This document shows, one piece after another, positions 1 to 3,000 of a DNA stretch of 19,066 nt. How positions within the stretch are numbered: the first letter of the stretch is position 1; each line of letters opens with the position of its first letter. Origin of the DNA: a virus (taxonomy: Duplodnaviria; Heunggongvirae; Uroviricota; Caudoviricetes). Where the stretch lies: the IMG/VR virus record IMGVR_UViG_2698536657_000009. One strand, given 5' to 3'. The position numbers are program-made.

Positions 1-3000
1 GCCATCAGCGCTGGTCAGGGTTCCGTCAGAGTTCACACCAACTGTCGTTCTGGAATCTGTATATTCACGAGACTTTTTCGCTTCGACTACAAGGCGGGTA
101 TTCGTATCCTGAGCCAGTTGCTCAACACTGTCTTTTACACGGTCAACCTGACGAACGGTTGCTGCATCTGAGGGACGAGTACCGTCACTCAGGCCACCAA
201 GCACACGAGTTTTATAAGCCTTGCCCGCTTCTTCTACGTAGCCGATATAAACTTCATTATCACGGGTAGTGTGCGCTCTCGCCCCTAAAGCAACACTATT
301 TCTATGAGAAACTTCCGCTCTGCTTCCCAGTGCAGTGCCTTCGGGGGCATTTTCACCCACAACAGAGCTGCCCCCTAATGCCACGCCATAAACGGATGAA
401 TCATCCACATGAGAAAAACTTCCCAACGCGGTTGAACCATTAGCATAAGCCTGCCCCCCACTTCCTAATGCAGTACTCTGTCTCCCATGAGCACTAGCCC
501 ATGAACCAACAGCTGTTGAATTCTTTTCCTCCGCCGCTGCACCTTCTCCAACAGCCAGAGCGAATTCGCCCACCGCACTAGCCTGAACCAAAGGGTCACC
601 TTCCGGACGTGGTCCTGATGCGATGAAATCCGATTGTTTTAATACTTCAGGATTAATAATAGTATTTGATAGATTATTAACTTTATTGAAGATCCGGCGG
701 ACCTCCTCCTCATCAACCTGATGCTTACCGTTTTCTTTGTCAGACGTTCTGAGGCCTGCTGCCATACGGGCGAAGTCTTTTAGCACAGGCTCATGAACGG
801 TATATGCAATTGAGTTATCTTTACTCAATACTATAATATTACCCTCCTGATCGAAATTAAAAAGGGTCTCATCTTTTCCGTTCAGAACATATCGCATTGT
901 TCCCCAACCAGAGGATTTGTTATAGTAAATACGATAAGTACTACCGTGTATAACAGACGAAGCATCTGCCTCTTTCAGCACTGAATAAAAAGGCAAACCA
1001 GAATCTTTGATAGGAGGTAACTCCTGAGCTAAAACACCTGAGCTGATCCCAAGCAGAAGCCCACCCAGAGAAGATGACAGAAGTGTCTTTGTGAATTTTT
1101 TACTCATTATGGATATCCTGTTAAATTATCTGTATACAAATCAGCCGCAACACCTCATACTCATAAAGAAATATGATTAATTACGGCTTTATTCAGGATA
1201 TTCTGAAAATGATCGTGATTATTAATTTTAAATAACTAGGAATTATCTTACTATATTCTTGGTGTATTCACTCCTGAGACATAGAGCAACGTAGGAACCG
1301 AAATAAGAAAAATCTTACCCTCATCAGGCATGACATTTCACATCTGCTTACACTGTAATTTCTGATCAAGATCACAACATTATCCGAATTTAAATGTTCA
1401 GTTCATCTACAATATTTCCCTGCGTGACTTTATATCAGCCCCGTACATCCGTACGGGGCATGTTCTTTACTCCACTCCCACTTTTTTGTTGTACTCGCGG
1501 TTAAACCGATCCACGGCAATTTTCATATCCCGCTCAACCGATTTCACCATCGCCGACTGTTGCGCCAGACTGAGAGTACTGTCGGCGTAAATGGCATCAC
1601 GCTGTTTACGCAAATCCTTCAGTCTCTTCCGGGTATCCTGCATAAGCCCGTTCATCGACAATTTTCCGTTGTTCTCGTCAATGAACGCCGTTCTTTCTGC
1701 ACCGGTCAGACTCTTCAGCTCTGCGTGATACTGCGCGACCTCCGTCATCCGGTCGTACATCTTCTGCTGGTCAGCATACGGCATCACCTCACCTGAAATT
1801 TTCCCCAGGAAGGGCACCTGCTGCTCCGGTATATCAATACCATTCAGCGATTTCACCGCCGCATCCGTGGTTTTAGAAATGAAGCGCCCGGTCCCGCCAG
1901 AGATATAGTCAATCCAGAATTTCAGCGATTCCGGTGTGATATCCACCGCGCCGGGACGGTACTGGCTGCCACCAGAGAACGCATTCAGCCAGGATGCAAA
2001 CGCCTTGTACGCTTCTGGCGTTGAACGTCTTCCCAGCTGGCTGTCAGGTTTTGGTGTACCAAACGGCATGTTCTCCTGGTAAATCTGCGCCCCCATGAAG
2101 TTTTCATTCATGGCAAGGTTCGCAAACGGACGCAGAATGGTCGGCGCTGCATTTTTCAGCAATGCCCCGGACAGTGTTTCCGACGTCTCACTGCCAATCG
2201 GGCTGAATGCACCAAGCACACCACCAACAACATTACCGGCAGCACGGGACGCCGTCAGGTCACCCGCCGCCACACCTTCAGCGGTATGCCCGAGCAGGAA
2301 GAAAACGTTGTACCCGTAAGGCAGAGGAATACTCCAGTACTCTCCGGCCTTGCCCCCGAACATCGATTTCATAATGACGAGGTTACGCTCTTTCACATGA
2401 GACGGCACCTTGTCATACCAGTTAACCCCGTCATCATCCTCCCCCGCAACACTGCGGTTAAGCGAGCCAAGCAGATAACCCGCTCCCACAGCTGCAAGCG
2501 CGATTTTCTGCGGTACATTGAGATTCTTCCAGCGAAGGCGCTCCAGTAACGGCCCGTCGCCATTAAGATGTCCGAGCGTTCTCACCAGATTTGCCGTTCC
2601 CTGAATACTGGCGTTGGCGAACATGTACAGCGAGTTCATCAGCGCCCCCTGCTCACCACGACGGTTAAAGTTCACCGTCATGTTTTTGGCAAGAGACGCC
2701 GCCTGCTGGCGTGACAAACCGGCATCACGGGCGTGTTTATAAGCTGACAGACGCAGTGCGTTTTCAACCGCGCCGTTGGCATCCTCGACCAGGTTCAGGA
2801 ACGAATTCCATGCACCGATACTCTGGCCTTTCCATCCCCCCTTCGCCAGTGAGACAAGGCGATCCATTTCCTTCTGCTGGCCTTCAAGGTCACCCATGTT
2901 AAACCAGCCGGTTTTGCCTCCGTCCTCAACAAACTCTTTCCACACCTTCTGCCACTGTGTACCTTTGCCCGTGAGAGTTTTGCCTCGCAGACTGGCGTAC

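Follow-up and report, generated by a model that had tools for sequence, protein, structure and literature searches.

Does the giant protein of phages of the 933W/phi24B type carry helices that enter the host envelope when DNA is delivered? These phages are the main vehicles of Shiga toxin (Stx) genes, and the question bears on the passage of their DNA across the E. coli envelope and on the function of the LPD38 domain. We followed it in a stretch of 19,066 nucleotides (the window) from the virus record IMGVR_UViG_2698536657_000009 (Caudoviricetes), whose minus strand holds an open reading frame (ORF) of 2,795 amino acids (aa), a homologue of phi24B gp47 (Table 1). The first-pass annotation had pointed to two Gly-rich hydrophobic segments near the C-terminus of this protein as possible membrane-inserting helices that form or anchor a channel in the host envelope. 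Both peptides were located in the ORF. The interval 2190-2510 corresponds to aa 2449-2555; segment 1 (IALAAVGAGYLLGSL) spans aa 2451-2465 (window 2460-2504, minus strand) and segment 2 (AAGNVVGGVLGAFSPIG) spans aa 2538-2554 (window 2193-2243, minus strand). Two plus-strand ORFs, at 2095-2319 and 2286-2549, overlap the same interval; they run antisense to the giant gene, which is long and well supported, and they themselves have no support.

We lean towards the reading that both segments are helical elements of a soluble, packaged C-terminal module, with segment 1 buried, and that neither is a constitutive membrane anchor. The module, mostly helical, ~900 residues long and including LPD38, is the part that stays constant at the C-terminus of thousands of giant polyvalent virion proteins, from short-tailed phages and from others. 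Each virion contains several copies of the giant protein, which presumably leave it along with the DNA. Within the module, segment 1 is the strictly apolar, Gly/Ala-rich core of a predicted 24-residue helix, with Q-K before it and N-R and a DDD(D) loop after it, and its small residues would permit close helix-helix contact in a buried packing position. Segment 2 is predicted to be an amphipathic helix that closes with the invariant turn F-x-P-[ILV]-G, and is probably a buried packing element as well. The location of the segments, their conservation, their predicted helicity and their presence in virions are shown; their burial and any role after ejection are inferred.

Earlier publications describe the giant protein, place it in the virion and propose a conduit. 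The conserved apolar helix with its acidic motif directly upstream of LPD38 is mentioned neither in the phi24B preprint (bioRxiv 10.64898/2026.04.10.717836) nor in Iyer et al. 2017 (PMC5512222); the word 'transmembrane' has 0 occurrences in both. We regard it as a modest but concrete lead.

Segment 1 and its acidic motif

Column statistics for segment 1 were obtained from 132 representatives, 36-78% identical in the region. Columns 2451-2462 contained zero charged residues. Immediately before segment 1, Gln2449 was present in 78% of the sequences and Lys or Arg occupied position 2450 in 90%. Inside the segment, position 2454 was Gly in 76% of the sequences, position 2459 had a small residue in 92%, and position 2463 was Glu or Asp in 19%. 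Asn2466 and Arg2467 follow the segment, still inside the predicted helix, and were conserved in 88% and 81%, respectively. The acidic motif comes directly after the helix, with an acidic residue at 2473-2475 in 98-100% and at 2472 in 89% of sequences. The helical periodicity of variability and side-chain volume along segment 1 gave a moment fraction of 0.04-0.09, which did not tell a lipid-facing side from a packing side.

The rank of segment 1 within whole proteins was examined in 131 giant relatives of full length, with a median of 2,807 aa. In 67 of them the top 19-residue Kyte-Doolittle (KD19) window of the protein was centred on the segment-1 helix, compared with ~1 of 131 expected by position alone, and the helix was among the top three hydrophobic peaks in 110. 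The KD value of segment 1 was at or above 1.6 (1.6-2.0) in 31 of the 131. The uncharged run at segment 1 was 15-16 residues long in the present protein, 12-16 residues in 122 of the 131 relatives and at least 18 in the other 9. In four distant phage homologues (BcepIL02, Ralstonia Heva, MetMV and Bacteroides BKO1-TP3; 23-31% identity) the equivalent stretch reached 20-23 uncharged residues, again with basic residues before it and DDD(D) after it; the MetMV stretch of 21 uncharged residues, for example, reads IIAGGLIFGAVQALALAAAGF-DDD. Conserved hydrophobicity, varying sequence and charged flanks were found together in segment 1 only. For segment 1, and for segment 1 only, conservation and not hydropathy goes beyond chance.

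AlphaFold2 (AF2) was run on aa 1881-2795 from a 55-sequence alignment. The model had a mean predicted local distance difference test score (pLDDT) of 84.2 and a predicted TM-score (pTM) of 0.81, and it was mostly alpha-helical with a small beta domain. The 24-residue helix around segment 1 was predicted with pLDDT values of 79-90, rising to 86-90 in the segment itself.

Hydropathy of the giant protein

The protein is charged overall (27% Asp, Glu, Lys and Arg; grand average of hydropathy, GRAVY, −0.61), in agreement with the first-pass annotation. Segments 1 and 2 each contain 47% Gly+Ala. No other block of the protein is as poor in charge (15%), as hydrophobic (GRAVY +0.03) or as rich in Gly (12.5%) as aa 2401-2600. 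The segments are, however, not its only markedly hydrophobic stretches, as had been claimed. The best KD19 window lies at aa 181-199 (1.51), compared with 1.22 for segment 1 and 0.89-0.96 for segment 2, and in 15-residue windows aa 189-203 (1.87) equalled segment 1 (1.85). In 500 shuffles of the protein the maximum KD19 was 1.62 +/- 0.26. The raw hydropathy of segment 1 is thus unremarkable for a protein of this size, because 96% of the shuffles reached 1.22.

The hydrophobic stretch overlooked at first, VNLIGALVPDMVVGGVA, covers aa 187-203 (window 9246-9296, minus strand). The N-terminal region is also Gly-rich (12% Gly in aa 1-200), and a further Gly/Ala-rich stretch, EGAAFGAAMGAPSGAVAG, lies at aa 401-424. 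Both stretches are kept in Salmonella relatives, with a conserved Asp in the middle of VNLIGALVPDMVVGGVA. A homologue search with the N-terminal 450 aa gave only enterobacterial (E. coli, Salmonella) relatives at the search sensitivity used.

A canonical transmembrane (TM) helix was taken to have at least ~18 consecutive uncharged and mainly hydrophobic residues, a KD19 of at least 1.6 and an insertion free energy near or below 0. Both segments were below the KD19 threshold. Their summed Hessa-2005 energies were +6.2 kcal/mol (segment 1) and +7.9 kcal/mol (segment 2), which are approximate apparent insertion free energies, since the scale was summed with its central-position values and without position or length terms. 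A Wimley-White octanol sum of +1.3 was obtained beside them. By hydropathy, therefore, neither segment is a canonical TM helix, and the Hessa sum of segment 1 was above +2 in all 131 relatives. By length, segment 1 falls short in the present protein and reaches the limit in the four distant homologues. For comparison within the window, the signal peptide of the Lom protein gave a KD19 of 2.09 and a Hessa sum of +1.3.

Segment 2 and the middle helix

Segment 2 behaved differently in the family. Column 2541 was charged in 53% of sequences and column 2548 in 23%, with Asp in 8 of the 9 charged cases. The longest never-charged run was 6 columns, and distant homologues have Lys, Arg, Asp and Glu through the segment, reading KSAVRTVSSFIDAYFPL and LEVSDVLAQMSQLLPV. 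Segment 2 thus has neither the length nor the conserved apolarity of a canonical TM helix. Phe2550 and Pro2552 were invariant (40 of 40 sequences). These charged columns and the invariant F-x-P-[ILV]-G turn led us to reject segment 2 as a membrane helix. The pLDDT of its helix and loop was 66-77.

The present segment 2 contains G2540-x3-G2544-x3-G2548, and a glycine zipper was considered. We rejected this reading because the glycines are not conserved: the three columns are Gly in only 8, 6 and 24 of 40 relatives, respectively. Gly-zipper Pfam families gave no match to the giant protein at E<=0.01.

Between the two segments lies an amphipathic middle helix (aa 2516-2529). Mutual information with average product correction (MI-APC) over 165 sequences gave plausible salt bridges overall, and the pairs of segment 1 were only weak (z ~4.2-5.0). 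The pairs G2459-F2519 (z 4.3) and R2467-E2526 (z 4.2) are weak and consistent in register. This in-register covariation hints at an intramolecular packing of segment 1 on the middle helix.

The C-terminal module and its family

The LPD38 match scored 164.5 bits against a gathering cut-off of 27 (E 3.8e-48) and covered profile positions 2-189 of 189. Segment 2 lies inside LPD38; segment 1 precedes the Pfam boundary by 13-27 residues and still belongs to the co-conserved module. PHROG 616 matched the giant protein end to end, and PHROGs 14770 and 10691 have only the C-terminal region in common with it (~aa 1881-2795). A search with this module (the C-terminal 915 aa) gave relatives down to ~32% identity, in which the module was always C-terminal and the N-terminal domains differed. 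A profile search of 1.84 billion representatives returned 19,592 clusters at E<=1e-3, of which 7,956 remained at E<=1e-30. Among the best 150 clusters most were giants of 2,000-5,500 aa, and a stand-alone copy of the module (P0039) was found on an Amphritea contig.

No relative of the module fold was found among solved structures. In BFVD the fold recurs at the C-termini of many giant phage proteins, such as those of Ralstonia Alix and PTXU04, at TM-scores of 0.6-0.9 and down to 13-16% identity; the partner domains included a lytic transglycosylase, RelA/SpoT and a methylase. The Methanosarcina virus MetMV (MK170447.1), whose annotated host is archaeal, has the LPD38 module at 31% identity. 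Bacteroides phage BKO1-TP3 (PQ571269.1) has it in a giant gene of ~5,550 aa adjoining the portal gene. These two viruses take the module beyond Gram-negative proteobacterial hosts, which matters for any model tied to a particular envelope.

The most conserved stretch of the module is aa 2391-2446 (window 2517-2684, minus strand), with many invariant Asn, Arg and Gln residues. The pLDDT of the polar block within it (Table 1) was 66-74, the lowest in the ordered part. This stretch would be a polar surface that is strongly conserved yet poorly modelled as a monomer, and it may be an interaction or oligomerisation site.

Virion presence of the segments

The giant gene was 92-97% covered at 94-97% DNA identity by 186 phage records, nearly all of them Stx-converting and of the 933W, VT2-Sakai or phi24B type. 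The giants of phi24B (gp47), 933W and VT2-Sakai are essentially the same protein as the present one, with the same Pfam architecture. phi24B gp47 has 2,811 aa, compared with 2,795 aa here, and its domains are as in the present ORF (10.64898/2026.04.10.717836). The neighbours of the giant gene match phi24B gp48-gp51, Lom, needle and nozzle.

In phi24B, gp47 was abundant in purified virions by mass spectrometry and invisible in cryo-EM maps; the supplementary table gives ~11-35 copies per virion (mean ~19), and the authors proposed that gp47 is an encapsidated ejection protein and part of a trans-periplasmic conduit (10.64898/2026.04.10.717836). The DNA-delivery context assumed in the first-pass annotation is supported by this homology. 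The phi24B virion peptide list contains the tryptic peptides IALAAVGAGYLLGSLNR and AAGNVVGGVLGAFSPIGSETSETLSGALLK, which cover both segments and are identical in the present protein and phi24B gp47. Both segments are therefore translated, and mature virions contain them. The list also has SVAGEDDDGVNWYDK and a peptide 24 residues from the C-terminus, so the C-terminal module is not trimmed off. The giant protein has the features of an internal virion protein, as it is no part of the capsid or tail shell and its gene is beside tail genes; the virion data are those of the phi24B preprint.

Other LPD38 polyvalent proteins (PMC5512222; Bcep22 gp75, JC1 gp69 and PTXU04_00025) share the C-terminal LPD38 module, variable N-terminal effectors, a late/virion gene context and virion association. 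JC1 gp69 is virion-associated, and PTXU04_00025 is needed for efficient infection by phage PTXU04. These proteins differ in their sets of N-terminal domains, and in the distant members the N-R pair is missing and the equivalent of segment 1 extends to 20-23 uncharged residues.

Comparison with T7 and N4 ejection proteins

The T7 internal virion proteins were scored on the same scales. T7 gp14 reached a maximum KD19 of 1.31 (Hessa +6.1), and the Gly/Ala-rich segments of gp16 gave KD19 values of 1.44, 1.39 and 1.32 (Hessa +2.8 to +9.6), whereas gp15 reached only 0.84. In the T7 work, gp14 is reported to localise to the outer membrane, gp16 enters liposomes and has been proposed to refold and cross the inner membrane, which it would span, and the periplasmic-tunnel protein gp15 has no predicted TM helix or liposome binding (PMC8954989). 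T7 gp16 also purifies as a soluble monomer, with its putative TM regions folded into the globule before ejection (PMC8954989). The KD 1.6 cut-off was dropped as a decisive test, because gp14 and gp16 fall below it too. Insertion after ejection may occur in spite of a hydropathy below the threshold, since these membrane-active proteins score likewise, and in spite of burial in a predicted soluble fold, since the TM regions of gp16 are folded in before ejection.

T7 gp14 and gp16 resemble the present protein as podovirus internal virion proteins that are soluble and mostly alpha-helical and have marginally hydrophobic segments with equal scores. The present protein differs from gp16 in being twice as long and polyvalent. 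No homology was detected between the giant protein and T7 gp15 or gp16 (hhalign probability below 1%). The solved ejectosome structures gave no fold match to the module, and no homology of the T7 gp16 or P22 type was found.

In phage N4, smaller hydrophobic proteins that form a channel are ejected first; the giant encapsidated RNA polymerase gp50 (~3,500 aa) comes after them and remains anchored to the membrane by its terminal (N-terminal) domain (PMC13434306). The arrangement of N4 gp50, gp51 and gp52 is similar to the present one, where the giant gene comes after those for smaller virion proteins, the gp48-gp51 homologues. N4 gp50 differs in that its anchoring domain is N-terminal, whereas the constant module is C-terminal here, and in its RNA polymerase domain, which has no counterpart in the present protein; no homology was detected.

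Weighing of the explanations

Several results favour packing of segment 1 inside a soluble module. Its KD19 and Hessa values are below those of TM helices and its uncharged run is short in 122 of 131 relatives; Asn and Arg are conserved inside the helix, and an acidic residue occurs at 2463 in about a fifth of the sequences. Small residues are kept at 2454 and 2459 and covary weakly with aa 2516-2529, and AF2 predicts the helix confidently as an integrated part of a single well-defined model. The following points weigh against this reading. The pattern of segment 1 is also that of a membrane helix, with a basic flank, a never-charged but variable Gly/Ala-rich stretch and an acidic cluster. It is the hydrophobic maximum of the whole protein in 67 of 131 relatives, with KD values of 1.6-2.0 in 31, and it extends to 20-23 uncharged residues in BcepIL02, Ralstonia Heva, MetMV and the Bacteroides phage. 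The membrane-associating T7 gp14 (1.31) and gp16 (1.44) score no better, with the non-membrane gp15 at 0.84, and later insertion is proposed for gp16 although it is soluble with its TM regions folded in (PMC8954989). The same points speak for a second explanation, which we consider unlikely but well above the remaining ones, namely that only one of the two segments, segment 1 (aa 2447-2470), is a helix with a latent capacity for insertion, hidden inside the soluble fold in the capsid and entering the inner membrane after ejection. Its charge dipole would orient it, with the basic N-flank towards the negative cytoplasmic side and the DDDD loop in the periplasm, and the helix would anchor the module as the ejectosome's component at the inner membrane, comparable in function to T7 gp16 or to the N-terminal domain of N4 gp50. 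The family-wide apolarity and the conserved charged flanks fit this explanation, as do the multiple copies of gp47 in virions, the need for an LPD38 protein in efficient PTXU04 infection and the N-terminal lytic transglycosylase of some relatives, as in T7 gp16. There are precedents both for soluble ejection proteins with folded-in TM regions (PMC8954989) and for a membrane-anchored giant ejected protein (PMC13434306). However, the run of 12-16 residues in most relatives, the N-R pair or an acidic residue inside the helix and approximate insertion energies above +2 throughout argue against it. So do the confident placement of the helix within the AF2 fold, the lack of a sequence or fold relation to any solved ejectosome protein and the module in a virus with an annotated archaeal host. 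A far more TM-like small protein encoded two genes upstream could also do the membrane work.

The proposal of the first-pass annotation, in which a transmembrane hairpin or bundle made of both segments, perhaps with the helix at aa 2516-2529, would line or anchor a channel, appears very unlikely. Three moderately hydrophobic helices do lie within 110 residues in the least charged block, and segment 2 has its own G-x3-G-x3-G pattern (G2540, G2544, G2548). But segment 2 is not conserved as apolar, and this disfavours the two-helix version; the middle helix is not kept apolar either. The charged columns 2541 and 2548, the rarity of Gly at 2540 and 2544, an uninterrupted uncharged run of 6 columns, the low KD19 and the high Hessa sum all count against it, and the invariant F-x-P-I-G turn points to a structural loop. 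That the segments are chance hydrophobic patches with no specific role is the least probable explanation, and we give it hardly any weight. It draws on the shuffles, of which 96% hold a 19-residue window at least as hydrophobic as segment 1, and on the protein maximum (1.51) being below the shuffle mean (1.62). The conservation data refute it for segment 1, which is the hydrophobic maximum in about half of the relatives and has conserved motifs on its flanks, and segment 2 ends in an invariant motif. The packing reading stays in favour, and the segment-1 helix is the one candidate to be taken seriously, should any part of the protein enter the host membrane once it has been ejected.

A broader form of the insertion idea is slightly less likely than the latent helix itself. 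Here the segment-1 helix and the DDD(D) loop would be an insertion element, oriented by the membrane potential, that anchors the LPD38 module of ~20,000 clusters in the cytoplasmic membrane. If this were true, the module would be a universal inner-membrane component of the ejectosomes of GP4/phi24B/Bcep22-type phages, and the N-terminal array of variable effectors would thread into the cytoplasm. Membrane-insertion and mutagenesis work has a precise target in aa 2447-2476, where a short and conserved apolar helix bears a fixed charge dipole. Segment 2, an ordinary amphipathic helix, and the raw hydropathy of either segment are not worth pursuing.

Other features of the giant protein and its neighbours

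LPD5, LPD1, MuF_C and LPD38 occur in one ORF among late/virion-type genes, as in large polyvalent proteins, and the flanking genes include tail-fibre/needle and internal-virion-protein families. All features are collected in Table 1.

Table 1. Features of the giant protein and of neighbouring genes in the window.
Feature	Residues (aa)	Window position	Strand	Basis or remark
Giant ORF, 2,795 aa		1467..9854	minus	homologue of phi24B gp47 / 933W-type giant virion protein
LPD5	1050-1199		minus	Pfam
LPD1	1360-1439		minus	Pfam
MuF_C	1748-1846		minus	Pfam
Conserved C-terminal module	1881-2795	1470..4214	minus	PHROG 14770/10691 overlap, homologues, AF2
Polar block NFNRRGE...YMFANASIQGT	2395-2420	2595..2672	minus	most conserved polar block, just upstream of segment 1
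Segment-1 helix, 24 residues, VPQKIALAAVGAGYLLGSLNRSVA	2447-2470	2445..2516	minus	AF2 module residues 567-590
Acidic motif G-E-D-D-D-G	2471-2476	2427..2444	minus	directly after segment-1 helix
LPD38 (PF18857)	2478-2683	1806..2423	minus	Pfam
Middle helix, amphipathic, NVFFLLGHTAEGVA	2516-2529	2268..2309	minus	AF2 module residues 636-649
Segment-2 element, amphipathic helix and turn F2550-x-P2552-[ILV]-G2554	2535-2548 (helix)	2193..2252	minus	AF2 module residues 655-668
gp48, gp50, gp51 homologues		9940-11202, 11495-11947, 11944-12669	minus	similarity to phi24B
90-aa ORF, gp49 homologue		11213-11485	minus	two genes upstream of giant gene; PHROG 594
Lom/Ail outer-membrane beta-barrel with signal peptide		13517-14251	minus	Pfam Ail_Lom, E 2e-32

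Two HExxH motifs, HEWFH and HEIIH, were seen at aa 1283 and 1550 (window 5994-6008 and 5193-5207, minus strand), and from their sequence they are candidate zinc-metallopeptidase sites. A metallopeptidase domain was proposed to process polyvalent proteins (Iyer et al. 2017, PMC5512222), and in the phi24B gel gp47 peptides were spread across many bands of decreasing size (10.64898/2026.04.10.717836).

The 90-aa ORF has a C-terminal tail of ~40 residues with the pattern of a glycine zipper, GTGIGTGATIGATVGSAVPVVGTAVGAVAGAVIGGIAGALF. Its KD19 of 1.95 and Hessa sum of +1.9 make it far more membrane-like than anything in the giant protein, and it gave weak, sub-threshold Pfam matches to Gly-zipper_Omp and Bacteriocin_IIc. 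Its phi24B counterpart gp49 ('E. coli bacteriocin', 86 aa) had low virion counts and was dismissed as a contaminant (10.64898/2026.04.10.717836). This protein could be a small membrane-active ejection protein. The gp48, gp50 and gp51 homologues had no match in Pfam; in phi24B a virion holds ~20-40 copies of each of these proteins, none of which is in the cryo-EM model (10.64898/2026.04.10.717836). These three, the giant protein and the 90-aa ORF are likely the ejection-protein set of this phage type.

The Lom/Ail gene sits within the block of tail and internal-protein genes. In the 241-aa ORF at 11944-12669 (minus strand), PHROG 611 aligns from residue 27, at an ATG (MGGSKGG...), and the mechanically called TTG start is probably too far upstream.

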